Shown: positions 3,405 to 33,884, counted from the first letter of the stretch. The stretch: 33,884 nucleotides of DNA from Acidimicrobiia bacterium (GCA_029210695.1 JARGFH010000040.1:1-33884); one strand, 5' to 3'. Notes: a model not told the origin generated them from the letters alone. Made by a program: numbers and translations.

Positions 3405-3428
3405 CCCCGAGGAGCCTTCCAGGACGCG

Positions 3429-3462
3429 GAGAAGCCCCCCACCTCCAGGTGGGGGGCTTCTC
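3429..3462. terminator. Bidirectional terminator hairpin
   Basis: Perfect 16-bp inverted repeat GAGAAGCCCCCCACCT-cc-AGGTGGGGGGCTTCTC between convergent operons. Confidence 0.8.
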
Positions 3463-3482
3463 TGTGGAGGATGGGTGTTAGG

Positions 3483-3692: not shown

Positions 3693-3841
3693 CGGAAAGG
3701 CTCCTTTCGGGACAGGTTTGGGTAGGTCCTGGTAAGGGTGGTAAAACGTCACAGTATGAAACCTCCGTCGGTGGGATGGCCGGTAGGCGATTAGAACCCC
3801 TTCGAACAGGAGAACGGCAGTGACAAGGACGGCCAGGCCGG

Positions 3842-17536: not shown

Positions 17537-17548
17537 GATTGGTGCCCC

Positions 17549-17896
17549 CTATGTGGCTGTTCCTGGAATGCTGATTCCGGTGACGGTGTACTCCCCAGCC
17601 GCGTTGAAAGCCTGGTCGCCGGTCGTTGGCAGCCACCCATAGAACGTGCCTACGGTGAGCGCCGACCAGAACCCGACATGGGTGGCAGGACCGCTCGCCG
17701 CGCCCCCGGTGAACGGCAGGTCAACCAAAGCGATCATGTCACCGTTCGCAGCCGCCTCCCATGTGATCGGTTGGCGGGCCGAGGTCGCTTCGTTGCTTCC
17801 GGCCGCGTCGGGTATCGCAGTGTGGATTTGCAGGTGCGTTGCCGCCCCCTGCATGGCGGCAGCACCGATGTTGAGCAGGGCATCATTGAGTGGCAT
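17549..17896 (-). CDS. Small virion fiber/collar-associated structural protein
   Basis: LQIHTA.P...GSNE...ARQPITW...THVGFWSA.T.GTF.G motif, common before large fiber genes in head-neck modules. Confidence 0.75.
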   Translation of the reverse strand: MPLNDALLNIGAAAMQGAATHLQIHTAIPDAAGSNEATSARQPITWEAAANGDMIALVDLPFTGGAASGPATHVGFWSALTVGTFYGWLPTTGDQAFNAAGEYTVTGISIPGTAT

Positions 17897-18198
17897 CAGT
17901 CATCTCCTGAGGCGTCTGCGATCACCTTGCCCAAACCCTCAATGAGCGACTTGCGTGGGTTCTCCGTTGCCTGCTCGGTCTCGAGAGCTGCCGTGGCAAG
18001 GTTGAGGTCGTCGCCGACCTCTTCGAGAATGTCTTTGACCGACTTGGCCTTTTCGACAACCGTCGCGCCGATCATGACGATCGGGTTGCCGTCGGAGTCG
18101 ACCGGGATCAGCTGGCCTTTGGCGAGTTGCTCGGCAATGTGGTCTGGAAGGGGCTCGTCGAACTCGAAGACGGCCCCTCCCGTACCTTTGAGCAACAT
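17896..18198 (-). CDS. Hypothetical head-module protein
   Basis: SVKDILEEVGDD...ALETEQATENPRKSLIEGL helical motif; TGATG overlaps on both sides. Confidence 0.7.
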   Translation of the reverse strand: MLLKGTGGAVFEFDEPLPDHIAEQLAKGQLIPVDSDGNPIVMIGATVVEKAKSVKDILEEVGDDLNLATAALETEQATENPRKSLIEGLGKVIADASGDD

Positions 18199-18560
18199 CA
18201 GGCTGTCCTGGGCATGTGCAGGGCGGTGATGGTGCCGGTGGCGGCTGCTTCAACGTCGACGTGAAGACTGCCGTCGGCTTGGATGAACCGGCCCGACGTG
18301 AACGGACCGACAAACCCGACCGCTGCGTTGAGGGGGACGATCAGATCTCCCTGTCCTGCTTCGAGGGCAGGCGGGTTGGCACCGACCTTGATGGTGAAGT
18401 TCTTGGCACCGACGAACGTCGAGCTGATTCGCAGGACCAGTTCTTCGAGAGGCACACCTGAGATGATGTGCCCGTTGGTTGGGTCGACGGCTGTACCGGC
18501 CGGGTCCGCCAGACTGGCGTTCGGGGTGAAGACGTCGGCGGTGATTGCTGTACGTGCCAT
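18198..18560 (-). CDS. Putative capsid decoration protein
   Basis: Immediately after the MCP; beta-rich 120 aa; AAAGGA SD. Confidence 0.7.
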   Translation of the reverse strand: MARTAITADVFTPNASLADPAGTAVDPTNGHIISGVPLEELVLRISSTFVGAKNFTIKVGANPPALEAGQGDLIVPLNAAVGFVGPFTSGRFIQADGSLHVDVEAAATGTITALHMPRTA

Positions 18561-18582
18561 GTGATGGTTCCTTTCCAGAAGC

Positions 18583-18611
18583 GGGGGAACCCCCTACAAA
18601 GAGGTTCCCCC
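18583..18611 (-). terminator. Hairpin after the major capsid gene (partial terminator or mRNA stabiliser)
   Basis: GGGGGAACC / GGTTCCCCC 9-bp stem in the intergenic gap. Confidence 0.55.
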
Positions 18612-18633
18612 TTCGACTCAGACTCCGGTCAGA

Positions 18634-19485
18634 TCAGGTCGGTGATACGGTCGCGATTGCGATCCCGTTCGGACGGACCAGTTTGGCGCCGTACAGGTGA
18701 AGCCCCTTGACCGCATCCGAGAACGAGTCTTCGGGCCGGTAGGCTTCAACCTTGTTGATCTGCTCGGCGAACGAGATTGCACCCGGGAACCCGGCTAAGA
18801 CAACATTGTCGTCACCGACCGGATTCGGAGTGTTGTTCGACATGCGAATGTCGAACCCGGAGGCCCGGCCGATGAACCCGTTGCGGAGGGCTTCCGTGCC
18901 ACCTGACGCGTCGGCCCGGACGAACCGGTCGTCGCGGAGGAGCCGACCATGGAACCAGGGTGGGATCACAACGTAGCGACCCTCCTTCGGGACACTTGCG
19001 TCGTCCAACGCCACCATAAGTGGAACAAGCACCAGATCGTAGGCGTTGGTCGGGGTGGCTGCCACGACGGCGATCGTGCCAAGATCATTGGCTGCGACAA
19101 CCCCCGTGTACAGGGAGACGACGTACTGGTCGGCGACGTCACGTAGCCCGTAGGCGGCTTCAACGATCGCTTCGGGAATCACATCGCCGGCAGCTTGCCG
19201 TTTGTCGACGTCGTCGACTTCGAAGGCGAAGTACTTGGACTGGTCGACAATCAGTTTTCGCTGCGCGGTGGTCAGCTGCTCAGGGGTGATGGTTGTGGAC
19301 CCTTTGACGTAGGTTCCAATGGTGGGGCGGCTGATCGAGTTGATGGTGACCGTGTCACCCTGCTCGCTGATCTCACCCTCATAGTCCCGGTTGACGACGC
19401 CTGGAGCGGCATACACCAGAGACTTTTTCAGGGAGGCGAGCAGGAGCTTTGACCAGATCTCCGGTATGAATGTCGCTAGCGACAT
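18634..19485 (-). CDS. Major capsid protein (HK97 fold, P22 coat-like family)
   Basis: FIPEIWS, NRDYEGEI..GDTVTI, DAVKGLHLYGAKLVRP motifs; AAGGAG SD. Confidence 0.92.
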   Translation of the reverse strand: MSLATFIPEIWSKLLLASLKKSLVYAAPGVVNRDYEGEISEQGDTVTINSISRPTIGTYVKGSTTITPEQLTTAQRKLIVDQSKYFAFEVDDVDKRQAAGDVIPEAIVEAAYGLRDVADQYVVSLYTGVVAANDLGTIAVVAATPTNAYDLVLVPLMVALDDASVPKEGRYVVIPPWFHGRLLRDDRFVRADASGGTEALRNGFIGRASGFDIRMSNNTPNPVGDDNVVLAGFPGAISFAEQINKVEAYRPEDSFSDAVKGLHLYGAKLVRPNGIAIATVSPT

Positions 19486-19495
19486 CGGATACTCC

Positions 19496-20149
19496 TTACT
19501 GCTTCACCCCTAAAAGATGAGCGAGTCGGCCCTCGTTGTGAGCTTTCTCAACGTCTTCAGGGGACATGGATTTCAGGTCGTCACGTGTGATCGTGCCCGA
19601 TCCGCCACCGCGGAGACCTTGGTCTCCACTGCCGGTACCGGCGACCTTCTTCAGATACGGTTTCTCGGTGACGAGAACGTCGATCGCTTCGTCGACTGAC
19701 TTGGCGGTCGGCTGCCCATCCTCTCCGTACTCGATCGTCGACGTGTCCAACAACCGCCAGGCAGCATCCAGATCGTGGATGTCCTTGGTTGCGGCACGGG
19801 TGATCACCATTGACCTCGTGAGGGCGTCCTTGATGCGCTGATCGGTGTCGGCTTTCGCCTTCTCCGCCGCAGCAGCACGTTCGGTTGCCTTCTCGAGTTC
19901 GGTCTTCTGTTCTTCCTGCGCCTTGTCGAACTCTGAAGCTTTGGCTTTCAGGTCGTCATAGTCGGCGTATTTGGAGCGTTCCCGACGTAGCCGGTCGGCG
20001 ACAACACGGTCGAGGTCCTCTTGTGTGAACGTCTTCGAGTTGTCTTCGTCAGACTTGCCAGTGTCACCGTCGCCGGTTTTACCGTCGCCGGCAGCTCCGC
20101 CACCGGCATCGTCGTGCTCTTCACGGAAGGGACGGAATGGTACGAACAT
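19496..20149 (-). CDS. Capsid scaffolding protein
   Basis: KTFTQEDLDRVVADRLRRER.KYADYDDLK.KA...KTELEK hallmark; ATG 20149 with GGAGG SD. Confidence 0.9.
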   Translation of the reverse strand: MFVPFRPFREEHDDAGGGAAGDGKTGDGDTGKSDEDNSKTFTQEDLDRVVADRLRRERSKYADYDDLKAKASEFDKAQEEQKTELEKATERAAAAEKAKADTDQRIKDALTRSMVITRAATKDIHDLDAAWRLLDTSTIEYGEDGQPTAKSVDEAIDVLVTEKPYLKKVAGTGSGDQGLRGGGSGTITRDDLKSMSPEDVEKAHNEGRLAHLLGVKQ

Positions 20150-20230
20150 GAATGTTTCCTCCGTTTTCGGCCCGTCGGCCGAGGTCACCGGCTGTTGAAC
20201 GCCAGCCGTGAGCGCTAACCCGAACCCCGT

Positions 20231-21037
20231 CTAGGCGGCGTCCGTGAACTTGTGCGCGCTGTTCCACAATGTGGGACCGAGCTCGCCGTGTGAAACAATG
20301 CTGACCGCCGGTAACGTGTCTGTGTCGATACGAAGCCTCGACATTGCTTCCCGTGTGTACGGAAGGTCTGCGGACCGTAACTGGTCTTTGACCAGGGACA
20401 GGGAGTCCCCGTCGATGATTCGGGACGGTGCGCGGGTCCCGAACAGGGGTTCTACAGTGCAGCCACAGTTCGAATGGATGGGCATCAGATCTTCCGACGA
20501 GTAGCGTTGGGTGGAGGCCACAATGCACAGGCCACAGTTTTTGCCTGGTGCCAGTACCCGCTGATATCCGACAATCCTTGACGACTGGCTGGTGACCGCT
20601 TGGGCGGCGTTGCGGGCTGCCAGTTGTGTGTCTGTGTCGGCCAACATGCCGACCGTGTTGCGGCCTTGACCTACTGCGTCAGACCAGGAAGCACCCGCCG
20701 ATAAGGCTGTCCATGTCCTCACGAACGGTCGCCGATACACAACCTCCGGTGGGGTGGGACGGATGGGAATGTCGGTGAGGCCCAACGGGGACACGGCAAC
20801 ACCCAGTTCGAACTCCTGGAAAGTGGCCAGGTAGGCGTCTGTGGCGGAGACGGCTGCGTCGGTGATCGTGGCCAACACCGGCAACACGGTTTCGAGGAAC
20901 CGGGGTATGTCGGCTTCGTTGTATGAGGTCAGGTCTTTCCATGCGGTCACGGCTGTACGTCGGGCCGCACCGCGCAGCTGTTCAATACGGAAACGGTAGG
21001 CGGCCACCAACTCTTTACCGAGCACAGTGTCAGCCAC
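20231..21037 (-). CDS. Minor capsid / head morphogenesis protein (MuF-like)
   Basis: GYQRVL...NCGLC..ASTQRY...LMPIHSNCGCTVEP; the likely start is GTG 21037, overlapping the upstream stop. Confidence 0.8.
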   Translation of the reverse strand: MADTVLGKELVAAYRFRIEQLRGAARRTAVTAWKDLTSYNEADIPRFLETVLPVLATITDAAVSATDAYLATFQEFELGVAVSPLGLTDIPIRPTPPEVVYRRPFVRTWTALSAGASWSDAVGQGRNTVGMLADTDTQLAARNAAQAVTSQSSRIVGYQRVLAPGKNCGLCIVASTQRYSSEDLMPIHSNCGCTVEPLFGTRAPSRIIDGDSLSLVKDQLRSADLPYTREAMSRLRIDTDTLPAVSIVSHGELGPTLWNSAHKFTDAA

Positions 21038-21227
21038 GGTCAACCTGTCTGATGATCTCGGCGAGTTCGTCGTGAAGGTATCCGCCGTCACACCAGCGCA
21101 GTCGGCGGCTACACGAACGGCACACCCAACCGGTGCCGGCCACCCACCGTCGCGCCCACAGTCCCCACCGGCGGCAATGCCATTCACGGGCCAACTCCCA
21201 CCAGCCGGTCAACACGATTTTCAGCAT
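21030..21227 (-). CDS. Small Trp/Cys/Arg-rich protein inserted after the portal gene (65 aa)
   Basis: MLKIVLTGWWELAREWHCRRWG...CRSC...; TGATG overlap with the portal stop and 8-bp overlap with the next gene. Confidence 0.55.
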   Translation of the reverse strand: MLKIVLTGWWELAREWHCRRWGLWARRWVAGTGWVCRSCSRRLRWCDGGYLHDELAEIIRQVDRG

Positions 21228-22675
21228 CAGACAGTCTCCGCCGGTTCCCCAACCTGAGCGGTGCTTTGACCCAGAAGACTGAACAGGTTCGAGGTGGCAG
21301 CCATCGTCTTCCACCGTTTGATCTCCTGCGGGGTAGCGTTGGCTCTCTCCCACAAAGCCTCGTTGGGAATGTCCAATGCTTTCAGTTTGATCACCGCGTC
21401 AACATGCTCCCCTTCAGAACGGGACTCGGGATCCCCCCACAACGTTTCAGCAGACCGTTCGTTCGACTTCTCATCGTTCATGGCTGCAAAACCGAGTCGA
21501 ATGACCGCTTCCCACGATTCCCCAAAATGCAGGTGCTGCCGTTTCACTTTGGCGACCAGACCGGTCTCAGTCGCTTTCAACGACTCACCCGACGGAAACG
21601 CGCCGGACTGGCCTAACAGGTAGTGGGGTGGTGTCCGGGTGATCGCCGCCAAATGTTGCACGTCGGCTTCAACCGCCCGAATGAACCCGGCCAAAGTCAC
21701 CTCAGGGAACGAACCGAACTTGGCTTCTGGGTTTTCGTCCATCCACACCGAATCAACGGCGGCGTCGTAGTCGATCGGGACGGCCTCACCAGTTTCAGGA
21801 TCCTCCACCAGTGAGATACCTGTCGCCCACCGTTTCTGACTGGCAGTGAACTCGGCAGCCAACATGCGACCGAAAATGGTGGCGTTGATCCGATCCTGAA
21901 TCGAGGTCACATCCGAAATCTCCGACACCCCGCCACGGATCAGGTCCGGATGGTTACGAAACACCACAATCGGGACCGCGCCAAGCGGGTTTGTGAGCGG
22001 CCATTCTTCCCCTTCGGGTTCACGTCGCATCCAGTCGCCACCCTCACCCCGCCGGTATTTGACCACCCAGCCCGGCAGGTACACGGTCGCAAAGGTGGTT
22101 GTTCCAACCTTCCACCGTTTCAAAGCTGCTGCCCGGAGTCGCCGGTTTTCCGGTGAATGGGCGACGATGACCTCCGACGGATGTTCCGGCATGATCAGTG
22201 GTATGTCACCGGTCGGCCAAACCGACACATATGAGGTGCCCGACTTCAACGCTTCAGTGTGAACCTGGTCGGATTCGGCGTCCAGATTGTTGGCCTGCCA
22301 CATCGTCCAGGCTGCTTCGTCACCGACCGTGTCCCCGAACCGGAACCCTTCGACCCGTAACCGTTCACCAAGCGCGTCAATGACCAGCCGCATCCAGTTG
22401 GTTCGTGACTTGACCAACAGGTCAGCATACTTCCGTTTGTAGTAGGTGGCTTTCTCCTGGGAACGAAACGGCATCTCCGGGAGCGGATGGTCACCCCGGT
22501 AGTATTCGTCAAACCTCAACGCCTTCGACGCCTGCGCGTCCAACTGGACTTCGAGCAGTTTCAACCATCGCCGTGCTTCAACATCAACCGGCCCGTCACC
22601 GACTAACGAATCTGACCCGTTCGGCATCGGCATCAACGTCTTCGAATCGTTGAAGAAGTCAGACGCAACAGCCAT
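21227..22675 (-). CDS. Portal protein (SPP1 gp6-like)
   Basis: YYRGDHP, NWMRLVIDA..ERL...GF, WQANNLD, TNPLGAVPIV.F.N, TRTPPHYL, SGESLKA.E motifs. Confidence 0.95.
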   Translation of the reverse strand: MAVASDFFNDSKTLMPMPNGSDSLVGDGPVDVEARRWLKLLEVQLDAQASKALRFDEYYRGDHPLPEMPFRSQEKATYYKRKYADLLVKSRTNWMRLVIDALGERLRVEGFRFGDTVGDEAAWTMWQANNLDAESDQVHTEALKSGTSYVSVWPTGDIPLIMPEHPSEVIVAHSPENRRLRAAALKRWKVGTTTFATVYLPGWVVKYRRGEGGDWMRREPEGEEWPLTNPLGAVPIVVFRNHPDLIRGGVSEISDVTSIQDRINATIFGRMLAAEFTASQKRWATGISLVEDPETGEAVPIDYDAAVDSVWMDENPEAKFGSFPEVTLAGFIRAVEADVQHLAAITRTPPHYLLGQSGAFPSGESLKATETGLVAKVKRQHLHFGESWEAVIRLGFAAMNDEKSNERSAETLWGDPESRSEGEHVDAVIKLKALDIPNEALWERANATPQEIKRWKTMAATSNLFSLLGQSTAQVGEPAETV

Positions 22676-22690
22676 AGGGGAGACTCCTTT

Positions 22691-24247
22691 TCACCGTTTG
22701 AATGCCCGATACTGCTGCTTCTTGACGGTCGCGCCGGCGGCGATAGCGTCACCACGCGCCTCCCAGGACAACACACCGGCCGGGACCGCGTCGATCTTGC
22801 GGGGGGACATGGGCCGATCTTTCTGAACGGTCCACATGCGACGTTTGTGGTCGTCGACCACGTTCAACATTTGGCGGCGGGCATGACCGACGTGCTGAGC
22901 CATTTGAACGTCACCGTCGTTGGAGAGGTCGCCGGCAGTGATCGCTTCGGAGTAGCGGCGCACCGCGTAGGCCATCTGCTTGGGACGGTTGGTCCACCAC
23001 TCGAGAACAGTCTTCTCACCCCAACGGCCCTGCCACCGGTCGATCAAAGTTTCGATGCGTTGCGGGTCGCAGTAGACGCGCCACACTGAAAACCGGTCGA
23101 ACGTTTCGACCATGGTCCCGTCAACGTCGTCGAGGGGATGTTCGTAGTCGTCGTCAGCGTCGGGGGGTTGTTCCCAAATCCCAATGACGAACTGGTGGCC
23201 GGTTTCAACCTCGGTACCGACTACAGCCAAAGCGTCATCCCAGCGGGCTCCGTCCACCCCGATCGTGATCAACGCCCCATCGGGGACAACCCGATCATCG
23301 ACGCGCGCCTTCCACACTTCCGGGTCGAAGGCGGCGTCACCTTCACCCCGTTTCCGGTTGAGGAAAAACCGTTCGGCCTGACCTGGGTCACGGGTGAGGA
23401 GCTCAACAATCTCCATGTCGATCCGGTCCAGGTCAACCCAATGCGAATCCCCGTACACTTTGCGGAGCATCCGCCGGCGGTCACGTCGGTTGTTGATCGA
23501 CCCCGACCCCGGATCCACATCATCCAGATAGACGCCTGGAGCCTGCGACTCTGATGTCTGCTGAGCTACCGACTCCTCGGTCGGATTCCAAGCGTTGGTG
23601 GTTTCAAGGAAACGGCCGTTCATGCCGGCCAGGTTGCGGCGTTGCGTGTCAGCCACCCGGCGGCCCTGATTGTGGGCTGTCCAACTGTGTGTTTCGTCCT
23701 CCACACAGAACGTGATCCGCTGACCAAGTCTGGAATGATGCGACGACGTGACAGGTTCGATCTTGCCGCCGTGGGGCAGGTTGATTCGGGTGCGGCCGGT
23801 ATCGGGAATGTCAAACCGTAGGGCAGACAGTTCGATCATCGGCAGCAACGCCAACCAGACGTTGTCGGTCTGATCACCAGACACCGCCGTGACTTGAATC
23901 CACGGGGTTGCCCACGGTCGGCCAACCGGTTCACCGGCTGCGTTCCAACCGGCCGGACGGACCGGCCCTTCCGGATGGGCTTCGACGATAACCACCGCCG
24001 ACGAGAACGGGCCCTTCCCCCATTTCTGTGGGCGGACCAACTGGCTGCCACGTTCGAAAACAAACTTGCCTGACTTCGGATCGATCCGGTACAGCCAAAG
24101 CAGATGATGCCACATCTCATCGGTGAGGAGATACGGTTCACCCACCTGATCCCCATCCGGAATCACACAGCAAGCCTCGATCAGATCTCCCACCTGATAG
24201 CCGAGAGTGGGGAACTCACCTGGATACTCAGGACCGCGCCACGGCAC
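22691..24247 (-). CDS. terL: Terminase large subunit
   Basis: Walker A (PQKWGKGP), Walker B (VEDETH), nuclease GVDG..DD, YCDP and KIDA motifs. Confidence 0.95.
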   Translation of the reverse strand: MPWRGPEYPGEFPTLGYQVGDLIEACCVIPDGDQVGEPYLLTDEMWHHLLWLYRIDPKSGKFVFERGSQLVRPQKWGKGPFSSAVVIVEAHPEGPVRPAGWNAAGEPVGRPWATPWIQVTAVSGDQTDNVWLALLPMIELSALRFDIPDTGRTRINLPHGGKIEPVTSSHHSRLGQRITFCVEDETHSWTAHNQGRRVADTQRRNLAGMNGRFLETTNAWNPTEESVAQQTSESQAPGVYLDDVDPGSGSINNRRDRRRMLRKVYGDSHWVDLDRIDMEIVELLTRDPGQAERFFLNRKRGEGDAAFDPEVWKARVDDRVVPDGALITIGVDGARWDDALAVVGTEVETGHQFVIGIWEQPPDADDDYEHPLDDVDGTMVETFDRFSVWRVYCDPQRIETLIDRWQGRWGEKTVLEWWTNRPKQMAYAVRRYSEAITAGDLSNDGDVQMAQHVGHARRQMLNVVDDHKRRMWTVQKDRPMSPRKIDAVPAGVLSWEARGDAIAAGATVKKQQYRAFKR

Positions 24248-24727
24248 CTAAGCCTTCTTCTTGGCCGACTTGGGGTCGACTGCTTTCACCCGCCGTTTCG
24301 GTTCAACAACATGCAGCTGGTGGACTTCGGCGAGCTCCTCAGCTTCAGTGGGGAGCAGCCAGCGAAGATCACGGCGTCCCGGTTCTGTCAAACCGAGAGA
24401 CTTCTTCAACCTGTCCAAACCGATCAGCAACGTACCGATCCCTTTGGTTTCTGAATGGGCCAACATGCGGGCAACCGTGTCCTCAATGCGGATCGCACGA
24501 GTCAGGTCCGCCCACTGTGACTCGATCCACATGTGCGCCATCGGCGACTCCCACCAGCGGATCCACGTGTACTTCGTCTCCTTGAGCAACCCACCCGACA
24601 CTCGAGGCAGGTTCGGTTTCGAACCCTCATACGGTTCAGCCGGCAGAACCGTCCACTCGCCACGCTCCGGCATGTTGCGCCGGCGACGTTCGCCCGGCAG
24701 TTTCGGAGCGGGCCCTCTTCCAGCCAT
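24248..24727 (-). CDS. terS: Terminase small subunit
   Basis: MAGRGPAPK...RRRRN, W..WW.SP.A..W...W, LGLT..GR..LRW motifs of actinophage TerS. Confidence 0.88.
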   Translation of the reverse strand: MAGRGPAPKLPGERRRRNMPERGEWTVLPAEPYEGSKPNLPRVSGGLLKETKYTWIRWWESPMAHMWIESQWADLTRAIRIEDTVARMLAHSETKGIGTLLIGLDRLKKSLGLTEPGRRDLRWLLPTEAEELAEVHQLHVVEPKRRVKAVDPKSAKKKA

Positions 24728-24729
24728 GA

Positions 24730-24870
24730 AAAACTCCAAACGGTGAAAGGTTACAAAGGACGGGTCTGACGGATGGGAACAGTCGGATAGACCCGTACAC
24801 ATGGAGAGAAGCTGCCCTCACCGGTCCCGCGGTGATGTGACTAGTTAGTGCCTCCCCACCCCCGACCGCG
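24730..24870. other. Candidate packaging (cos-like) site region
   Basis: Gap between HNH and terS, with a G-rich run (GGGGGTGGGG on the minus strand). HNH-terS-terL order usually flanks the packaging site; the exact cut site cannot be determined. Confidence 0.35.
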
Positions 24871-25188
24871 ATGTAACTCTCGAGATCGAGCGGCCTCACG
24901 TGCAGTTTTCGCCTTATGACAGTCGACGCACAGAGACTGCAGGTTTGTTTCCGAATGATCGTCGTTGTTGACGATGTGATCTACCTCAGTAGCGGGGGCA
25001 CCACACTTCACACAGCGATACCTGTCTCTGCGGAGAACCCGGACCCGGCGACGGTTCCAATCCTTTGGGAGTCTGGAGCGTCGAGTCGACCCAGTCCAAG
25101 GGGCCGGTTGATGTTGAATGCAACGGCCAGTCGACGACAGTTCCGGACATCCCGGCTCGGCGCATACCCTCAGCGAACGACGAGACAC
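24841..25188 (-). CDS. HNH endonuclease (packaging-associated)
   Basis: CAEPGC, RDRYRCVKC..ATEVDHI...NLQSLCVDCHKAKT. Confidence 0.92.
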   Translation of the reverse strand: MSRRSLRVCAEPGCPELSSTGRCIQHQPAPWTGSTRRSRLPKDWNRRRVRVLRRDRYRCVKCGAPATEVDHIVNNDDHSETNLQSLCVDCHKAKTAREAARSRELHRGRGWGGTN

Positions 25189-25660: not shown

Positions 25661-25757
25661 GCGGGTCACCTTCCCCCAAAGTTTCCGGCAGAAACTGCTA
25701 CGAGGCCCCGGTCGGGACCCCGTGTGTAGGCGCACCTGTCGTGAACCTAATAACAGC

Positions 25758-25787
25758 ACTGTAGTTCACCCCGTCAAAGCAAGTCAA
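25758..25787 (-). promoter_or_regulatory. Candidate promoter for the late operon
   Basis: TTGACT-N18-TACAGT in the AT-richer gap downstream of the second recombinase. Confidence 0.45.
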
Positions 25788-25833
25788 TCACTCAATGACG
25801 GTTGACGATCCAGACAAATGTCCCCTACAACCC

Positions 25834-26730
25834 TCAGGGTTCGTTATCAGGACGGGTGAGGGTGTCACCTAGAAGGCGCGCGGCTGCGGCGGTAGCAGTG
25901 CGAATGTTGCGGCCGGCGATGTAGCGTAGGGTGGTTTCGATCGACCGGTGACCTAGCAACTGTTGGACATCCTGAACGGGTGCACCCGCCTCCAACGCCA
26001 AGGTTGCTGCAGTGTGACGCAACGTATGGGGTGTGCACTTTTCGACCCCCACCGAGGTGGAGAGCTCGACGATGGTCTCCCAACCGGCTCGTCGTGACAG
26101 TGGCCGTCCTTCGGAGGTCAGAAGGATGGGGCCTTCCTTGCGGTCGCCGGCCGCCCGTCGTACAGCCTCGAGCACTGGCGGGGACAGAGGTTTCGCCTGA
26201 CGGTGGCCCCCCTTTACCGTCACAGTCAAAACGTCGTCGCTGATATCCTCCAGACGGGCTGTGCACGCCTCGGCGATTCGCAAACCCACACCCACCATCA
26301 GCCACACCAAAGCATGCGCAGCAGCCGACCGGTCCCTAGCAGCCGAAATCAGCAGCCGGGCCTGTGCAGGGGTCAACCCAGACTTTTGGGGTCCCTCACC
26401 TTTAGGGCGCCGCAAATGGACAGTCGGGTCTGTCTCCACATGCCCCTCATCAGTCAAATACGAGAACAACGAATGGACGGCTGACGCTTTCCTCTGCACC
26501 GTCTTCGGAGCCAACCCCTTCCCAATCAGTTCGGCCAGCCACCGTTGAACCACCGGCCGTGACACCACAAGCAACCCCACATTCACATTCTCCAGGTAGG
26601 TGATGAACTGGGCGACATCCGTACCGTACCCACTACGGGTGTTCGGTGTCATGCCCACCAACCAGTCCGCCACCAACCCACGCACCTCACCCATGCCATC
26701 ACTCATGCCATCACTCATCGGAGCAATCAT
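25834..26730 (-). CDS. Second tyrosine recombinase (XerC/D-like, with SAM-like core-binding domain)
   Basis: TPNTRSGY..DV..F, GLRIAE, VKGG, TPHTLRHT, VQQLLGH.SIETT.RY: complete R-K-H-R-H-Y set. Confidence 0.92.
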   Translation of the reverse strand: MIAPMSDGMSDGMGEVRGLVADWLVGMTPNTRSGYGTDVAQFITYLENVNVGLLVVSRPVVQRWLAELIGKGLAPKTVQRKASAVHSLFSYLTDEGHVETDPTVHLRRPKGEGPQKSGLTPAQARLLISAARDRSAAAHALVWLMVGVGLRIAEACTARLEDISDDVLTVTVKGGHRQAKPLSPPVLEAVRRAAGDRKEGPILLTSEGRPLSRRAGWETIVELSTSVGVEKCTPHTLRHTAATLALEAGAPVQDVQQLLGHRSIETTLRYIAGRNIRTATAAAARLLGDTLTRPDNEP

Positions 26731-26765
26731 ATCCTCGCCTTACCTTCCGGGAGATTATCGCTCAT
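26727..26765 (-). CDS. 12-aa linker mini-ORF MSDNLPEGKARI
   Basis: Starts at a junction motif (GACGATGAGCGATAAT) with GAGGA upstream; its TGA overlaps the recombinase ATG (ATGA). Confidence 0.4.
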   Translation of the reverse strand: MSDNLPEGKARI

Positions 26766-26776
26766 CGTCCACGTCC

Positions 26777-26971
26777 TCAGTTCGCCTTCCATCGGCGGCG
26801 ACACCAACCACAAATATCAGACCCAACCGGATCCACAGTGCCGATCAGAAGCGAGCCGATAGCCGGTTTGGTGAAGGCGGGACCGAGTTCGACGGCTCGG
26901 GTAAGGGCCGGGCAAGTCTCAAACAGGTGATCGACTGTGACGCCGGCATCACCCTCGTGGTGGCATGTCAC
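26777..26971 (-). CDS. Small Cys/His hypothetical protein
   Basis: HLFETC...ICGWC metal-binding pattern; start uncertain. Confidence 0.45.
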   Translation of the reverse strand: MTCHHEGDAGVTVDHLFETCPALTRAVELGPAFTKPAIGSLLIGTVDPVGSDICGWCRRRWKAN

Positions 26972-27245
26972 GGATCGATTCCACAGTCAACACGACAATC
27001 TGAAGTCGCTGGATCTCATCTTCCCATTCGTAGTCACCACCAACCGTTGCCAGCTCATCGGCATAGAACGACTCGACCCAATCGACAGCCTCATACCAAG
27101 AATGAAATTGGAACCCGCCGTAGTCACCGATGTCATCGCCGTCCACGGCCTCGACCCAATACCGTTTGCTCTTGGCTGTCGGTGCAGCAACCACGTTCAA
27201 AGAGACGGTTCCCGTCGCCTGAGTTCCTGGGGTGTTGTCATTCAT
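26949..27245 (-). CDS. Acidic hypothetical protein (cassette starting MNDNT)
   Basis: TGATG overlap, GGAG SD, junction motif GTCTGATGAATGACAACACC. Confidence 0.65.
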   Translation of the reverse strand: MNDNTPGTQATGTVSLNVVAAPTAKSKRYWVEAVDGDDIGDYGGFQFHSWYEAVDWVESFYADELATVGGDYEWEDEIQRLQIVVLTVESIRDMPPRG

Positions 27246-27544
27246 CAGACCCTCTCCTTCTCCTTTTGGTACGCCGCCCACGTTTCGTTCCATTCCCAGG
27301 GACGCTCAAACATGTCGCAAACCTCGGTAACGAGAGCCTTAGGCCAGCCGGCGTAATACCAGCGAACCAAGGCAACCACCTCGTCAGGGTCGTCATACCA
27401 GAAGCTTTCTAACGTTTCGATTCGGTGGTCGTTCATTTTGCCCATTTTTGGTTCCTTGTTTGGTGGGTAGATGTCGTGAGGGTCCCAGAGTTGGCATCGG
27501 TTCCCGTGTTCGCAACGAGCATTGCACAGGGTGTTGTCACTCAT
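27245..27544 (-). CDS. Hypothetical protein (cassette starting MSDNT), possibly two fused modules
   Basis: ATGAGTGA overlap; internal copy of the 31-bp boundary repeat with its own SD and ATG at 27445. Confidence 0.6.
   Translation of the reverse strand: MSDNTLCNARCEHGNRCQLWDPHDIYPPNKEPKMGKMNDHRIETLESFWYDDPDEVVALVRWYYAGWPKALVTEVCDMFERPWEWNETWAAYQKEKERV
27442..27472. repeat. Boundary repeat copy 1 (ATCTACCCRCCAAACAAGGARCCAAAA(A)TGG on the minus strand)
   Basis: Matches 27794-27823 except for 2 substitutions and a 1-nt indel. Confidence 0.9.
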
Positions 27545-27797
27545 CGGACACGCTCGCATCGGACACGCTCGCATCCAGAGCAGCATGCCCCGCTGCCGTG
27601 AGCAGCAGACGCTCCTTCCCAGAATAGGTGAACTCAAACCGGGCCAACCCAAGTCGCACCAAACGGCGGGAATGCGGAGAAGACACATGAGAAGGACCCG
27701 ACGAGCTTGAAATCCACATGGACCGACCTGCCGCTTGCATCTCTCGCATTCGGGCAAGGACAGTTAAATCCTTCTCGGTAATTACAGTGTTGTCCAT
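27537..27797 (-). CDS. Winged-helix-like hypothetical protein (starts MDNT, ends VSDE)
   Basis: AAGGAG SD; RRLVRLGLA...LLLTAAGHAAL resembles a winged-helix C-terminus. Confidence 0.65.
   Translation of the reverse strand: MDNTVITEKDLTVLARMREMQAAGRSMWISSSSGPSHVSSPHSRRLVRLGLARFEFTYSGKERLLLTAAGHAALDASVSDASVSDE
27542..27575. repeat. 15-bp tandem duplication at a cassette junction
   Basis: CATCGGACACGCTCG x2 plus CATC (ASVSD-ASVSD). Confidence 0.9.
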
Positions 27798-28090
27798 TTT
27801 GGCTCCTTGTTTGGCGGGTAGATAATGTGCGTTATGTTCGCTGCCCAGCAGGCGAGTGTGGCGAACACATGCCAATTGCACGTCGACCCATCAGGCATCG
27901 GAGCGACACACAGAATCGACGGACTGACATGCCCCTCACTATCAATCTCATGGTCAAGAAGTCCGGCATGACCGTTAGCACACACCACCCAAACCCCAGA
28001 CCGCCGATTCAACTCATCAGACGCCCAGGTGAGCAGCTGAGTCGGAATGCCGCGTTCGAGGGAGTGGCCGATCACAACTCGATCAGTCAT
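27782..28090 (-). CDS. Cys/His hypothetical protein (DUF6527-like pattern)
   Basis: CANGH...HEIDSEGHVSPSILC...CNWH; ATGA overlap, starts MTD. Confidence 0.65.
   Translation of the reverse strand: MTDRVVIGHSLERGIPTQLLTWASDELNRRSGVWVVCANGHAGLLDHEIDSEGHVSPSILCVAPMPDGSTCNWHVFATLACWAANITHIIYPPNKEPKWTTL
27794..27823. repeat. Boundary repeat copy 2
   Basis: See copy 1; contains the SD and start codon of the 27797 gene. Confidence 0.9.
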
Positions 28091-28374
28091 CGTGAGGTCC
28101 TTCCAGTTTTCATGCGTACGTTGAACCCCGCCGACTGAACCGCGTCGAGCGCCCGCACCAACCACATGATGTGAGTGTGGCGGTGATCGTCTGATACGCT
28201 CGACCACTTCTCCGCGTGGATCATCCGATTAGCTTGCCCGCCGTCGAACGTGCTGCATTCACATCGGTGCGCAACCTTCGCCACGTCAACAAGCTGCTCG
28301 GCGGTGTAGACGCCTTTCGTGACCGGCCAGAGAGACGCCGCCCATTCTTCATCGGTGGGGATGTTGTCACCCAA
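28087..28374 (-). CDS. Hypothetical protein (cassette starting MGDN)
   Basis: TTGGGTGACAAC junction with 8-bp overlap; GGGAG SD. Confidence 0.6.
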   Translation of the reverse strand: MGDNIPTDEEWAASLWPVTKGVYTAEQLVDVAKVAHRCECSTFDGGQANRMIHAEKWSSVSDDHRHTHIMWLVRALDAVQSAGFNVRMKTGRTSR

Positions 28375-28609
28375 CTAGATCACTCCCTCGCCTGGTCCGC
28401 CACCGGTGATCACATTCGGGGCAAACCAGAAACATGCCACCCCGACCACCGTCTCGGTCGACGTATGAATCGACTACCACAACTTGTAACCGGCCCTTCT
28501 CGATCCCCACGACCTCTTCAACTGTGACACCTCTGTACGTATGTTCCAGGTTCCAGCCAGCATCGGCCCGATGATGACAGTTTGAGCACATGATGGTGTT
28601 GTCACTCAT
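28367..28609 (-). CDS. Zn-ribbon hypothetical protein (cassette starting MSDNT)
   Basis: CSNC...CPEC; ATGAGTGA overlap; GGGAGG SD. Confidence 0.7.
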   Translation of the reverse strand: MSDNTIMCSNCHHRADAGWNLEHTYRGVTVEEVVGIEKGRLQVVVVDSYVDRDGGRGGMFLVCPECDHRWRTRRGSDLVG

Positions 28610-29483
28610 CTCGATCAGCCTCCCTGCTTCCACTGTGTACGCGGGGCATTTCGTCCCAGGTACACCCATCCAAGATGCGGCCCGCGGCCCGTTTGCCTAC
28701 ACGCCACATCTTCTGAAAGGCGCCGGCGCCGTTATCAAGAACGACCGACTCGGCAGAGGCTGGGATTCCCCCATAGGTCCACGACCACTCGCCCCATTGT
28801 TTGAAGAAGAACGGCACACCGGCTGTCTGACAACGACTACGAATATCCCGCACCCAGTCGGGGTGCATCGGGCGGGCCCCGGGTCCGGACTCACCACCAA
28901 CAATCACCCAATCGATAGCGGATAAGTTGAGGGCAGGGAGCGGCCCCAACAGCGGTTCGAGCGACAGGAACCGCACCGCCGCCGATGTGGAGCGCAGATG
29001 GTTCGCCCGGAACGCATACCGGTTCTCTTCGATCGAGGTCCCCAGCCACACGTTCGGCAGCGGACCGAAGTCCTCACCAAACTCGTCATCTGTCTCATAC
29101 CACTGAACCCACCGGGCCATCCGCTGTGGTCGTTTCGTCAGAATCTGAAAGACGTGAGCCTCCGCCCGCTCCATCACATGCCACACGCGGGCGATGAACT
29201 CCGGTGGCACATCGGGGTGGAACAGATCGGACATCGAGTTCACGAACACACGGCGAGGGCGCTTCCATCGCAACGGCTGATCCAACCGCTCCGGCAAACA
29301 GCGCACCAAACCAGTCCAATCATCCCTAATCGTGATGCCCCGATATGCCTCATTACCAGTCGTCTCGATACGGCGACTCATCGTGATCGCATAGCAGTTG
29401 TCACATCCCGGCGATACCTTTGAACACCCCAAAACCGGATTCCAAGTGGCATCGGTCCACTCGATCTTCGATCGATCACCCAT
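28602..29483 (-). CDS. Phage Gp37/Gp68 family (DUF5131) radical-SAM-like protein
   Basis: SKIEWTDATWNP..GC.KVSPGCDNCYA, FVNSMSDLFH, FQILTKRP, FLSLEPLLG, WVIVGGESG, PFFFKQWG. Confidence 0.95.
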   Translation of the reverse strand: MGDRSKIEWTDATWNPVLGCSKVSPGCDNCYAITMSRRIETTGNEAYRGITIRDDWTGLVRCLPERLDQPLRWKRPRRVFVNSMSDLFHPDVPPEFIARVWHVMERAEAHVFQILTKRPQRMARWVQWYETDDEFGEDFGPLPNVWLGTSIEENRYAFRANHLRSTSAAVRFLSLEPLLGPLPALNLSAIDWVIVGGESGPGARPMHPDWVRDIRSRCQTAGVPFFFKQWGEWSWTYGGIPASAESVVLDNGAGAFQKMWRVGKRAAGRILDGCTWDEMPRVHSGSREADRDE

Positions 29484-29489
29484 CGGTTA

Positions 29490-29555
29490 TCACCTTGCGT
29501 CTCCCTGTTTCCAGTCGTGTTTCTCACACCACATACGCCGGATCGTCTCACTCAT
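29490..29555 (-). CDS. 21-aa mini-ORF / cassette remnant MSETIRRMWCEKHDWKQGDAR
   Basis: Starts at a CCGATGAGTGA junction and ends 6 nt before the DUF5131 start. Confidence 0.4.
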   Translation of the reverse strand: MSETIRRMWCEKHDWKQGDAR

Positions 29556-29877
29556 CGGTTTCCACCCGCAGCAAAAAGTACGTCCCCACAGGTATGTCCC
29601 TCTCATCGGTTGGACCAAGATACAAGGACCGGGTCAACACCTCACCAGAGGTCTCAACGTAGATCTTCGTGACCTCAATCAGCGAGTCAAGCCGTTTGAG
29701 CATTCTGTCAACATGCCCATTGACCAAAGACGTTATCGCTCCGAACGGTTCGTTCATCAAACGGCGAGCGTCGTCGATCCATTGTTGATCTGTTCACCCT
29801 TTCCTGTTGACGAGCATTGATTCGTGTGCTCGTTGTGCCTGCTCTTTCATTACTTCTGCCATTTGGTTGTCACTCAT
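29548..29877 (-). pseudogene. Cassette gene (MSDNQ...VETDE) interrupted by an in-frame TGA at 29794-29796
   Basis: 110 codons in one frame between two junction motifs; reads ...VNRKG*TDQQWIDDARRLMNEPF... Confidence 0.65.
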
Positions 29878-30088
29878 CGGACACTTCTCCTGCTTGAAGT
29901 TTGAACTGTTCCCACTCCTTGATCGTCTCAAACGCTTCCATCCGACGTGCCACCGCACACCCCTCCAAAAATGCCGTCAACTTGAACAACCAGTCGGGCA
30001 GACTGTCAGCCACCGCCAATTGCAGAGAAGCGACCGCCAAACTGAACTCGGCCCGTTGCACCACCCACGGATCATGTAGCTTCTTCAT
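29870..30088 (-). CDS. Hypothetical protein ending VSDE
   Basis: ATGA overlap at the start; ends at the GTGTCCGATGAGTGA junction. Confidence 0.6.
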   Translation of the reverse strand: MKKLHDPWVVQRAEFSLAVASLQLAVADSLPDWLFKLTAFLEGCAVARRMEAFETIKEWEQFKLQAGEVSDE

Positions 30089-30387
30089 CCCCATATCAGC
30101 CATCCCAACACCACACCAACACCTGTCCCATACAGGGCAAACATGACCATCACTATCAGCACCGGAGTAGCCCGGTCGATCGTTGCCTCGTCGTCCGCAC
30201 CGACCCATACCTTCCGATACCCAAGCGTCTCACGGCAGCAATCACACAGATCATCGGGATAACACCATTCGGAGTCGGTGAGGCACCGTGCCCGATGTGG
30301 TCCCACTGTCCGATGCTCGAACGAGCCCTCCACTCCCTCAAAGTTGAGGATGTCGTCACTCACCGGACCGCGTGTTTCATCGTCCAT
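30085..30387 (-). CDS. Cys-rich protein with C-terminal TM helix
   Basis: HRARC...WCYPDDLCDCC plus a hydrophobic tail; alternative start GTG 30363 (VSDDI) at a junction-like motif. Confidence 0.65.
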   Translation of the reverse strand: MDDETRGPVSDDILNFEGVEGSFEHRTVGPHRARCLTDSEWCYPDDLCDCCRETLGYRKVWVGADDEATIDRATPVLIVMVMFALYGTGVGVVLGWLIWG

Positions 30388-30868
30388 TAGGGGGGTTCCT
30401 TTCGGGGAGTGGGTGGCCGCACCAGGCGCAAAACCGGGGCCACGTGATGTCGATTGGGTGGTGGCAGTGTCGACACAAAGAGCGTGCTTCGACCGTCCAA
30501 CCGGTGTGAATGAACCCGGCCAAAGCATCAGCCCGACGGGTGATGTGGTCAAGTTCACGAGTGAGGAGGTTGTGCGCGTAAACAGGGGTGGGGTCAAAGC
30601 TTTGACCGGCGGTCGAACCTGACACCCTTTCACGGTCGGGGCGGATGGCCTGATTCGCCGACGACAACAAAGCCAGAGTATCGACCCGGTTCAGGTAGGC
30701 GCGCACTGTGGTAGCTGCTGCTGTGTCCAGGTTGGCGACAAAGCCCAACTGGTCGCGCAGGCCGGCAATGGTCCGATCTCGAGCTTGTACGGTGTCGACC
30801 AGATCGGACCGTTGCCGTTGACAGGTCTCCAAACGGTCATGCAGTGACGGCTGCCGGGATTTCGTCAT
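30377..30868 (-). CDS. Coiled-coil protein with C-terminal double Zn-ribbon
   Basis: CRHC...FCAWCG; ATGA overlap. Confidence 0.7.
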   Translation of the reverse strand: MTKSRQPSLHDRLETCQRQRSDLVDTVQARDRTIAGLRDQLGFVANLDTAAATTVRAYLNRVDTLALLSSANQAIRPDRERVSGSTAGQSFDPTPVYAHNLLTRELDHITRRADALAGFIHTGWTVEARSLCRHCHHPIDITWPRFCAWCGHPLPERNPPNGR

Positions 30869-31488
30869 CGGGCAGCCGTTCCGAGGACCCCGGTTTCTGT
30901 CAGAAACTCTCGAAGCAGGACTGCTACTTCGTGTCTACGCCCGTAGACGGTGCGTCCGTCGAGGATGTCATGATGGGTTTTGCACAGCAGAACCGCATTG
31001 TCAGGGTGGTTGACGGTTTTGGAGCCGCCCATACCCCGATGGTTTAGGTGGGCGCACTCGAGCGGGTTGCCTCTACCGGTCGGGAAGGTGCAGCCGGGCC
31101 AACGACAGGACACGTCCCGGACGCGCACATGCTTCGACAGGGCTGCCATGGACATCATGAGCTTCCCGCGCGGGATCCCGCGCGGCCTCGTATAGTCATC
31201 CAGACCTGGATAGTTGACAGCAGCAGGGCGGCTCGGTGAGGATCCCGCACCGCCATCATCAACAGCAGTGGGTGAGCTGTGTTCACAGAAGTGGGTGAGG
31301 TGAATCCACACACCCTCAAACAGGCCCAACGCCTGACCGGACACGATGCGACGGTCACACCGCAAACAGCGGCCACCATGTTTGGCCCGAAATGTTGCTT
31401 CTGGGACTGCTTCGATCAAAGGTGGTATTGGGGTGTGTCCGTCGCATAGGACGCAGGTGCCCGGGTCCATCAAATGCAAATCACACAT
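30865..31488 (-). CDS. HNH endonuclease with N-terminal Zn-binding domain
   Basis: RDVSCRWPGC...ECAHL.HRGMGG...DNAVLLCKTHHD; start ATG 31488 (ATGTGTGA overlap). Confidence 0.8.
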   Translation of the reverse strand: MCDLHLMDPGTCVLCDGHTPIPPLIEAVPEATFRAKHGGRCLRCDRRIVSGQALGLFEGVWIHLTHFCEHSSPTAVDDGGAGSSPSRPAAVNYPGLDDYTRPRGIPRGKLMMSMAALSKHVRVRDVSCRWPGCTFPTGRGNPLECAHLNHRGMGGSKTVNHPDNAVLLCKTHHDILDGRTVYGRRHEVAVLLREFLTETGVLGTAAR

Positions 31489-33110: not shown

Positions 33111-33884
33111 AGGTTTGACCCCCGGTAGTAGGCGTGGACGGTGCCGTCGTCGTTGCAGTCGATCATCGCCCAACCCAACGTGTTGTCGCCTGTAGGTACA
33201 GCAACCGCTAAGCCGTGGTGGTGGGCGTCACGGATACCAGTGGTGAGAAGCATCGGGTTGTGGTTAGTCCATCCCCGATGTGACGCAAATTCGACAGCCA
33301 AAGCGTCCCGAACGTCCCAAGCGTCCCAAGCGTCCCGAACGTCCCAAACGTCCCAAACGTCCCGAACGTCCCAAACGTCCCGAACGTCCCAAACGTCCCG
33401 AACGTCCCAAGCGTCCCAAGCGTCCCGAACGTCCCAAACGTCCCAAGCGGTGTCGTACTGTTGGAGAGTCCAATCCAAACCCCGAGCTTCCAACGCCTCC
33501 CTCAGCGACACCTCCACATGTTCGGCATCCCATTCGGGACGGGCCAAAGCATCACGCCACAACAACACCGAGGACACAATGTCAGGATCCTGCAACGGCC
33601 GGTGCAGTGCTGTTACCGCATTCTCGAGTTCTTCACGGATGGCTTCACGCACCATAACCAGTTGGCTGGCACGGCATTTGTCACCCCGTTCAACCACCGG
33701 CTGATCTGTTTCGATCTTCCACAGACGGGACGGCCACCCGTCCGGCCACAACCCGCCAATTCGCAGGGCTGTTTCCGGGCTGCGAGTGAAGTTCCACCCT
33801 TCCGCACACTCTTTGTCGGATCTGTCAACAGTCACAGCCGGCAGCAGGGTGCCCGGTGTGCCGTCAAAAATCGGGGGGCCACCC
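33107..33884 (-). CDS. C-terminal part of the junction-spanning protein with (W/R)D(A/V) repeats
   Basis: Open frame continuous with 1..127 after circularisation; the full protein is about 275 aa. Confidence 0.85.
   Translation of the reverse strand, partial: GGPPIFDGTPGTLLPAVTVDRSDKECAEGWNFTRSPETALRIGGLWPDGWPSRLWKIETDQPVVERGDKCRASQLVMVREAIREELENAVTALHRPLQDPDIVSSVLLWRDALARPEWDAEHVEVSLREALEARGLDWTLQQYDTAWDVWDVRDAWDAWDVRDVWDVRDVWDVRDVWDVWDVRDAWDAWDVRDALAVEFASHRGWTNHNPMLLTTGIRDAHHHGLAVAVPTGDNTLGWAMIDCNDDGTVHAYYRGSNL
33304..33447. repeat. 9-bp tandem repeat x16 (CGTCCCRAR)
   Basis: Three unit types, ending GAA, AAG or AAA, in the order A B B A C C A C A C A B B A C B. Confidence 0.95.
33808..33884. 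repeat. Terminal direct repeat, right copy
   Basis: Identical to 1-77. Confidence 0.95.

Follow-up and report, generated by a model that had tools for sequence, protein, structure and literature searches.

Phage early regions are rich in small, fast-turnover orphan genes, many of them thought to act in host takeover or anti-defence, and how such genes are exchanged without losing their expression is only partly understood. In T4-type phages, promoter-early stem-loops (PeSLs) are repeated regulatory cassettes that mediate the shuffling of orphan genes, with deletion between two flanking copies as the proposed mechanism (PMC2839356). The SAS and ESAS repeats of Cluster K mycobacteriophages are short, asymmetric, one-orientation sequences with a ribosome-binding-site (RBS) core, found at the starts of non-structural genes of unrelated families and conserved among related phages (PMC3203893). 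In lambdoid phages, short boundary "linker" homologies that guide exchange between modules make up one of two models (PMC3029335). Here we describe a short stop/start gene joint that is reused along the early operon of a temperate siphovirus-type phage, carried on a 33,884-nt contig from Acidimicrobiia bacterium (GCA_029210695.1 JARGFH010000040.1:1-33884). The whole of this contig (C116 of its bin) is referred to below as the window. PeSL cassettes and SAS appear to be the closest described analogues of the joint, which probably serves both as a portable translational-coupling unit and as a short homology for the gain, loss and exchange of whole gene cassettes.

The repeated motif is real, and it is a reused stop/start gene joint. 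All twelve strings listed in the first-pass annotation, which was made from the sequence alone, sit on the minus strand where that annotation had put them, but its figure of about 12 copies is too high: five strong copies lie at real junctions (29877, 28609, 28374, 27544 and 27245), while one copy is internal to a gene and the others are core-only or weak. The sites at 29555, 29483 and 26718/26706 have only the core CCGATGRGTGA in common; the weak copies are at 28090, 27797 and 26765, and of these 27797 is a copy of a second joint type that is also repeated (family D4). At 30363, the copy most likely falls within a gene whose start is ATG 30387, because this ATG is in frame, has AAAGGAA upstream and matches the start in the relative described below; the copy marks the left edge of a 201-nt in-frame insertion. 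ATGAGTGA is present six times on the minus strand of the window (starts 29877, 29555, 28609, 27544, 26718 and 26706), all within 26706-29877 and nowhere else in the contig, and has no copy on the plus strand. The remaining 3.88 Mb of the bin contains 61 such sites, with at most two per 3.3 kb per strand. When up to three mismatches were allowed, the 15-mer GATGAGTGACAACAC had eight matches in the window against 1.52 expected, a number attained in 0 of 100 shuffles, and six of these eight were on the minus strand between 27232 and 30364; at up to two mismatches, the phage contig held four of the nine matches in the whole bin. A repeat finder given no hint of the motif returned a 19-nt family with six copies (26754, 27234, 27533, 28598, 29866 and 30352), of which those at 27533 and 29866 are identical over 19 nt. 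The shuffles, the unhinted repeat family and the sparseness of ATGAGTGA in the bin confirm the enrichment over the rest of the genome that had been expected for the motif. As had also been noted, the extended motif is absent from structural-gene junctions, since none of the structural-gene starts examined carries it, and the conserved early genes use ordinary ATGA or TGATG overlaps.

The joint is a unit of about 20-25 nt that comprises upstream tail codons, a ribosome-binding site, the stop/start overlap and the head codons of the next gene. The tail consists of the last four to five upstream codons (..E-V-T/S-D-E) with a GGAG(G) Shine-Dalgarno-like string inside them, and the head of the three to five codons that open the next protein, M-S-D and, in this phage, frequently M-S-D-N-T; most starts are preceded by a GGAG-like string at a distance of 9-15 nt. 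At five starts (29877, 29555, 28609, 28374 and 27544) the genes overlap by 8 nt: the upstream gene stops at the second TGA of ATGAGTGA, its protein ends ..D-E, and the next protein begins M-S-D. The overlap at 28374 has TTGGGTGA instead of ATGAGTGA, with an upstream protein ending ..V-G and a next one beginning M-G-D. Other stop/start overlaps are -4 (28090, 30088 and 30868) or -1 (27245). Each of the two non-start frames of ATGAGTGA holds a TGA; whichever of them an upstream gene is in, it therefore stops no more than 5 nt from the next AUG, at the -4 or the -8 spacing, and both stop frames are in use. Within the array (26.7-30.4 kb) we found no gene-strand promoter-like site and no convincing terminator, suggesting that the array genes are read off one long transcript; the sole gene-strand promoter-like site found is downstream of the recombinase gene that ends the operon. 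RNA folding showed the start region to be slightly more open at 14 joints than at 27 other starts (0.57 vs. 0.45).

Along the minus strand, the first strong joint (29864..29884; family D1, 100% to the reference copy) connects g3 (30088-29870), with tail ..VSDE-stop, to a 27-aa open reading frame (ORF; 29877-29794) with head MSDNQ, through the 8-nt overlap ATGAGTGA. A core-only joint (29545..29562) follows between g5 (29757-29548, tail ..VETDE) and a 21-aa ORF (29555-29490), and a copy reading AACCGATGGGTGA (29473..29492) lies at the start of a DUF5131 gene (29483-28602) and marks the left boundary of the block in which the window and the relative differ. The DUF5131 gene (tail ..RDE-stop) is connected by an 8-nt overlap to an 80-aa zinc-ribbon-like ORF, g8 (28609-28367, head MSDNT; joint 28596..28617), which is in turn connected by an 8-nt overlap to g9 (28374-28087) through a copy with a TTG start, TTGGGTGACAACATC (28361..28382; family D7). 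Further joints connect g11 (27797-27537) to g12 (27544-27245) at 27531..27571 (families D1 and D12), and g12 to g13 (27245-26949) at 27230..27256 (family D2), the latter with AGT changed to AAT (TGATGAATGACAACACC), a 1-nt overlap, TGATG, and the head MNDNT. A weak copy, ATGAGCGATAAT (26754..26772; family D1, 74%), has MSDN in other codons, heads a 12-aa ORF and is probably a decayed joint. At the right edge of the variable block, two tandem ATGAGTGATGGC copies (26695..26724) lie at the start of the gene for a Xer-like recombinase. The second joint type, ATCTACCCRCCAAACAAGGARCCAAAA followed by ATG (family D4), has one copy at the g10/g11 boundary (27797..27823) and another within, and in frame with, g12 (27446..27472). 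The two copies are 93% identical over 27 nt, with the tail IYPPNKEPK and a strong ribosome-binding site, AAGGAG, ahead of the ATG; inside g12, one extra A brings two reading frames into phase. As a separate observation, g8 (28367-28609) and g14 (26777-26971), both on the minus strand, have a CHH(E/R)(G/A)DAG stretch in common (41% over 17 aa, E 0.003) and both carry paired CxxC motifs, and may be diverged paralogues within the array.

How this joint differs from described elements is best seen feature by feature. Among enriched gene overlaps, the -8 spacing, NTGNNTGA, is recognised as the third class, following -4 and -1 (PMC12548453), and ATGAGTGA is such a -8 overlap that also contains a -4, with the ribosome-binding site in the last codons of the upstream gene; overlaps at -1, -4 and -8 all occur here on one strand and would be expected to couple translation. 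Unlike ordinary coupled overlaps, the joint is conserved to 19-22 nt among unrelated genes and is common to a relative that carries other genes. PeSLs resemble it in that a short repeated unit flanks orphan genes of a hyperplastic region and gene content differs between close relatives, but they are transcriptional units, a promoter plus terminator stem-loop of which about 100 bp is conserved, and lie between genes (PMC2839356), whereas the joint is a translational unit of 20-25 nt inside overlapping genes, in an array where neither a promoter or terminator nor a common fold was found. SAS is a 13-bp sequence, GGGATAGGAGCCC, located 3-7 bp 5' of the start (PMC3203893), whereas the joint includes the start codon itself, together with the stops and the opening codons. 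The window has no match to GGGATAGGAGCCC at up to two mismatches, and no ESAS-type 17-bp inverted repeats were seen in the repeat search. Lambdoid linkers are reported to be rare at mosaic boundaries, while here a boundary sequence is present at most junctions and doubles as a translation joint. A literature search on ATGAGTGA and boundary sequences returned nothing describing this joint among the matches listed.

A scan of IMG/VR with the recombinase led to contig G008 (32.4 kb, rated 47% complete). Nucleotide similarity between this relative and the window extends over the replication module (84%), g1, the small membrane-protein gene, the recombinase gene and about 360 nt downstream of it (72%), part of the small terminase gene, and window 141-1008; of the proteins flanking the block, g1 and its G008 counterpart a1 are 86% identical and the recombinases 79%. 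The accessory-gene block between them (g3 to g14, 26777..30085) is variable: apart from a 37-nt island and, among the proteins, the 21-aa ORF, g3-g14 have no nucleotide or protein counterpart in the G008 block (a3-a9). Between the bounding motif copies, the window has eight genes and G008 six. G008 joins its own genes by the same core, with the consensus GGTNACCGATGAGTGAC at six boundaries and ATGAGTAAC at one, and its six ATGAGTGA sites lie within 1.6 kb, with none elsewhere in the 32.4 kb. Three of its joints use the first TGA and three the second stop (TGA, once TAA), and AGTGA is retained even where it is not the stop. The flanks of the joints differ between the two phages. AGT is an uncommon serine codon in GC-rich DNA. 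In both genomes, the differing block is bounded by motif copies. At the left edge, when the alignment is read with gaps, similarity continues through GGTGA..CCGATGRGTGA and ends there, a reading for which the printed MAFFT alignment, ungapped there, gives only weak support; at the right edge, similarity begins at the ATG of the ATGAGTGA at the recombinase start. Separately, the gene after the first motif copy of G008 (L158 11704-11947) is split into a 12-aa ORF, MSDVVSLRSARP, and a 73-codon out-of-phase frame without a start of its own, which would point to a frameshift, a pseudogene or a sequencing error.

Other searches for relatives returned less. The large terminase (TerL) gave five loci in IMG/VR at no more than 55% identity, the best of which (L061), like L063, lacks the motif, and seven short loci (up to 8.1 kb) among metagenome contigs. 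The replication protein and g1 led back to G008 in IMG/VR, with no further relative, and the recombinase and replication protein found none in genome contigs; nor did the seven genomes of the bin's family contain a relative of the array. The g13 protein, the only small ORF searched in this way, matched only itself among 5.8 billion clusters.

Four sets of scars within the window bear on how the block has changed. First, the 21-aa ORF (g6, 29555-29490) is headed by a motif copy and is a 3' remnant of a 66-aa gene, a3, that is intact in G008; it matches the last 15 residues of a3 at 80% identity (E 4e-7). Second, g2 of the window (100 aa) equals the 33-aa a2 of G008 plus a 201-nt in-frame insertion in this small membrane-protein gene (30160..30367, minus strand). 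The motif-like GTGAGTGACGAC opens the insert, which lies between TCCGGTG direct repeats (30367-30361 and 30166-30160), and the two BLAST segments that flank the insert overlap by 7 nt in G008. Third, an exact 15-nt tandem duplication (27542-27556 and 27557-27571) just before 27544 doubles the tail ..ASVSD, and the 12-nt ATGAGTGATGGC is tandemly duplicated at the start of the recombinase gene. Fourth, the second joint type is itself repeated, at 27797 and inside g12.

A precise indel was found in another lineage. Related contigs from three samples (L176, L190 and L202) represent a lineage independent of the window, and L202 lacks one cassette of about 213 nt that L176 and L190 have, the loss lying exactly between two joint copies. 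Positions 1-1695 of L202 align to 1527-3221 of L176 (96%) and positions 1682-2887 to 3434-4639 (88%), so that 14 nt, ACGATGAGTGACGA, are covered by both alignments; these are the nucleotides that the two flanking joints have in common. Recombination or slippage from one joint copy to the other would be expected to leave just such a product. The first-pass annotation had cast the motif as a crossover site at which genes are inserted, excised or reordered, with breakpoints in related contigs falling exactly at the motif. The block edges, the scars and the L202 loss uphold in part the motif as a site of gene gain, loss and replacement, though not as a crossover served by a recombinase, and the breakpoints agree at the copy-bounded block edges and in L202 but not at the 21-aa remnant.

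The joint is generic and is not special to the lineage of the window or to its recombinase. The paired pattern CGATGAGTGA-N170-200-CGATGAGTGA occurs at 58 IMG/VR loci (48 after our own redundancy filter), compared to six for the backwards control. These loci range from 34 to 68% GC, every site in them reads MSD or MSE, and several carry four to seven copies with locally uniform flanks; by eye and without counting, a GGAG-like string lies 5' of the ATG at most sites. When upstream flanks were compared in pairs, 13 or more of 20 positions were alike for 19% of the 191 pairs from within a locus and for 1.7% of the 10249 between-locus pairs; the search pattern itself sets two of these positions, -1 and -2. 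An unrelated contig of 15.7 kb (G007) has five copies in 1.3 kb. ATGAGTGA is absent from 59 of 80 unrelated phage loci that were fetched through the DUF5131 protein, and none of the 80 has more than three copies. The exact 15-mer gave 52 single matches in IMG/VR, which by a rough estimate is about chance; two of these are DUF5131 gene starts and one lies on an array-bearing contig (L031). Arrays of three to seven ATGAGTGA joints with locally uniform flanks were seen at L184/L217, L163/L175/L207, L209, L178 and L216; some are clear tandem paralogues, with MSDDLVKR repeated, and others join unrelated heads. In two unrelated IMG/VR phages, DUF5131 genes begin with the same 16 nt, CGATGAGTGACAACAC (L038 3000-3016 and L049 3000-3016; MSDNT..IEWCDSTWN), while the DUF5131 gene of the window begins MGDRSKIEW; the head MSDNT may derive from a DUF5131-type gene such as those.

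The explanation that we consider the most probable, and somewhat better than even, is that the motif is a portable translational-coupling joint that also serves in the gain, loss and exchange of cassettes by short homology. Ribosomes would terminate and restart at each joint, and the promoterless genes of the chain would thereby stay expressed. With the same unit at successive boundaries, each cassette would be flanked by a direct repeat of 12-22 nt, and short-homology recombination, template switching or slippage between copies could delete, duplicate, insert or swap a whole gene. An exchange in register would leave a working joint, whether within one genome or between co-infecting relatives, and the neighbouring recombinase would not be needed for such joint-to-joint shuffling. 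We infer the coupling, the recombination pathway and any selection for evolvability. Several points weigh against this explanation. The homology of the 21-aa remnant to G008 begins 18 nt after the ATG and not at the motif. Nearly every boundary in the array is a motif copy, and the coincidence of breakpoints with copies is weak evidence for the motif as a substrate, because any gene-preserving exchange would break at one. G008, rated 47% complete, is the sole close relative found; the small ORFs are predicted only; folding of 14 joints gave no shared or consistent RNA structure; and a homology of 12-22 nt is short for efficient homologous recombination. Finally, no recombination gene was recognised among the ORFs scanned in the window (44 with PHROGs and only 28 with Pfam).

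The strongest rival, which we hold to be clearly less probable but worth serious weight, is that the joint matters for expression alone. Its likeness from boundary to boundary would then be kept by selection for termination and reinitiation, or the array would be a set of diverged tandem duplicates, and genes would turn over by illegitimate recombination with selection for intact boundaries, the repeats being no substrate. That the core is a generic -4/-8 overlap (PMC12548453), recurring in unrelated phages, fits this well, as does illegitimate exchange close to gene boundaries, the model preferred for the mosaicism of mycobacteriophages (PMC3029335). Some arrays are obvious runs of paralogues, such as L184 with its several MSDDLVKR copies, and in the window g8 faintly resembles g14 (E 0.003), and the head of g8 that of g12. 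Selection for expression accounts poorly, however, for two unrelated junctions that agree at all of 19 nt, even in tail codons that are dispensable for coupling, or for the conservation of AGTGA where ATGA already gives a stop. The homogenised flanks within loci, the precise cassette loss with its 14-nt overlap at the motif, and the insertion bounded by TCCGGTG repeats also speak for the repeats as a substrate. Paralogy does not serve as a general account of the array genes: when 16 window proteins were compared with one another by blastp, the only matches were g8/g14, g10/g12 and the g8/g12 heads, and the g10/g12 match (91% over 11 aa) is the tail of the second joint.

Translational operators have been proposed for the targets of T4 RegA, and the motif might likewise be bound by a phage or host RNA-binding protein or a small RNA that sets the translation of early genes. 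We regard this as unlikely. Its occurrence only at the starts of non-structural genes, in one orientation and with unrelated genes in two relatives, would suit an operator; SAS of Cluster K mycobacteriophages are described with these features too, and an operator role is left open for them (PMC3203893). The presence of the core in many unrelated phages from 34% to 68% GC nevertheless argues against a lineage-specific factor, and the flanks differ between the two relatives even though their conserved early proteins are 86% alike. The protein scans of the window recognised no RNA-binding protein, and the joints have no common RNA fold.

The first-pass annotation had instead made the motif a crossover site of the adjacent Xer-like recombinase, which would move cassettes as an integron integrase does. 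This recombinase, int2 (25834..26730, minus strand, 298 aa; matched in Pfam, PHROGs and NCBIfam), is a Xer-like phage tyrosine recombinase by its sequence: it matches Pfam PF00589 (Phage_integrase, E 6e-29) and PF02899 (SAM-like N-terminal, E 9e-12), and its best NCBIfam matches fall below the cut-offs (XerD, 135.3 vs. 329.6; XerC, 132.6 vs. 335.15). Its gene closes the early operon and, in both relatives, begins within a motif copy, so the array does end at a recombinase gene as described, but the relation is only positional and does not make the enzyme dedicated to the array. A second tyrosine recombinase, int1 (1538-2632, plus strand; phrog_1 integrase, E 2e-32), lies beside the lysis genes in a plus-strand block (1173-3735) that is divergent from the early operon and that we read as a lysogeny module; its start is likely well inside the listed ORF, near residue 83 (MGRPPGRG..). 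With int1 in this putative module, int2 is not obviously the integrase, a point in favour of the crossover model, as is the outcome of the search for attB. When the DNA downstream of int2 and around int1 was searched against 151 genomes of the order, only 25-50-nt matches of 78-100% identity (E 3e-5 to 1e-2) were returned, and none of the seven candidate loci scanned lies in a tRNA; these short matches were rejected as attB for either enzyme, as composition-level noise. In G008, too, there are two tyrosine recombinases; the second (contig 29829-30497) has 26% identity to int2.

Integron arrays do resemble this locus in having co-oriented, promoterless, mostly unrelated small genes beside a tyrosine recombinase gene. 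Integron attC sites are imperfect inverted repeats of roughly 57-141 bp at the 3' end of a cassette. Here, array genes overlap by 1-16 nt or sit 6-11 nt apart, and because they overlap or nearly abut there is no room for such sites. No local inverted repeats flanking cassettes were found by the repeat search, and Rfam gave nothing relevant, there being no dedicated attC model among the tools used. The motif itself lacks a core-site dyad, its only such feature being GTGT..ACAC in two copies. Against the integron-integrase models, int2 scored 56.7 bits where TIGR02249 has a cut-off of 265 and 35.9 where NF011946 has 435, and these models align only to its C-terminal 46-52 residues (the last 46 for TIGR02249). 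Its gene is downstream of the array genes and co-oriented with them, whereas an integron integrase is divergent from its array and upstream of it, with attI and a Pc promoter; the array here has no gene-strand promoter-like site. The absence of attC hairpins and of an IntI insertion, seen at first reading, thus held up, and the integron-like interpretation did not. Catalysis by the adjacent recombinase fared no better: arrays of the same core joint (58 vs. 6 loci) occur in unrelated phages, and Pfam Phage_integrase exceeded its cut-off in only two of the ten records with at least four joint copies. The eight others include a 100%-complete genome with direct terminal repeats and seven copies, though most of the rest are fragments, in which absence is weak evidence. 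The arrays therefore do not go together with the recombinase, the finding that had been named beforehand as counting against a link between the two. With scars that resemble short-homology or slippage events, same-joint arrays where no tyrosine recombinase was found, and none of the attC repeats, dyad or gene arrangement of an integron, a recombinase-served crossover site is very improbable.

The remaining features of the window place the array in its genome. An exact 77-nt direct repeat at the two ends (1-77 and 33808-33884) shows that the contig is a closed circle of about 33.8 kb and a complete phage genome; it was binned with a 3.9-Mb genome (181 contigs), in the rest of which neither attB nor any other convincing match was found. 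The GC content is 59.7% in the window and 63.0% in the bin. Pfam and PHROGs identified a siphovirus-type phage with small and large terminase, portal, protease/MuF-like, scaffold, major capsid, tape measure, tail and endolysin genes, and the minus strand carries nearly all of the genes. The early operon runs from a replication-initiator-like gene (33173-32178) through a gene with an HNH tail (31857-30865), both on the minus strand, to the chain of small ORFs, including the one DUF5131 gene, and then int2; after a further 640 nt without assigned genes come HNH and terminase genes. Two weak ORFs (25526-25221 and 25759-25460) had no family match in Pfam or PHROGs, neither 25800-30900 nor 14000-25000 had a megablast match among 50,697 phage records, a tRNA scan of the window found none, and the Rfam scan returned a single sub-threshold and irrelevant match.

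Three further observations were made around the operon. In the HNH-tail gene, the HNH-endonuclease part lies in a 420-nt segment (30868-31289, minus strand) in place of which G008 has 22 nt, a domain-sized indel with one end at the ATGA overlap with the next gene. Directly after int2 (25680-25790, minus strand), a promoter-like TTGACT-18 nt-TACAGT (TTGACA in G008) is followed by a GC-rich palindrome and a AGTTTCTGCCGGAAACT hairpin with a T run, all kept in G008; together they may form the late promoter and a leader terminator ahead of the HNH and terminase genes. Elsewhere, the bin holds another DUF5131 gene, a diverged one (G000 contig C149, 7464-8113) with 71-75% nucleotide identity across about 210 nt, perhaps part of a different phage or prophage.

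For the locus itself, the outcome is that the claim of a new integron-like system is removed. A broader proposition, that shared tail/RBS/head joints are widespread mobile boundaries of translational cassettes in tailed phages, routinely used by short-homology recombination while each genome homogenises its own joint, is one that we hold only tentatively and think doubtful as a general rule. On that view, the joints would be a translational counterpart of the PeSLs of T4-type phages, phage or host recombination would carry promoterless orphan genes from genome to genome without loss of expression, and the accessory region would be a self-organising platform for exchange. If the dual role is true, a joint that combines coupling with in-register homology would explain how promoterless genes are swapped as units. 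It would likewise supply a sequence signature of exchange regions in metagenomic phages, namely runs of ATGAGTGA-type joints whose flanks are locally uniform, for a wider survey of which L184/L217 and the other IMG/VR arrays listed above offer material.

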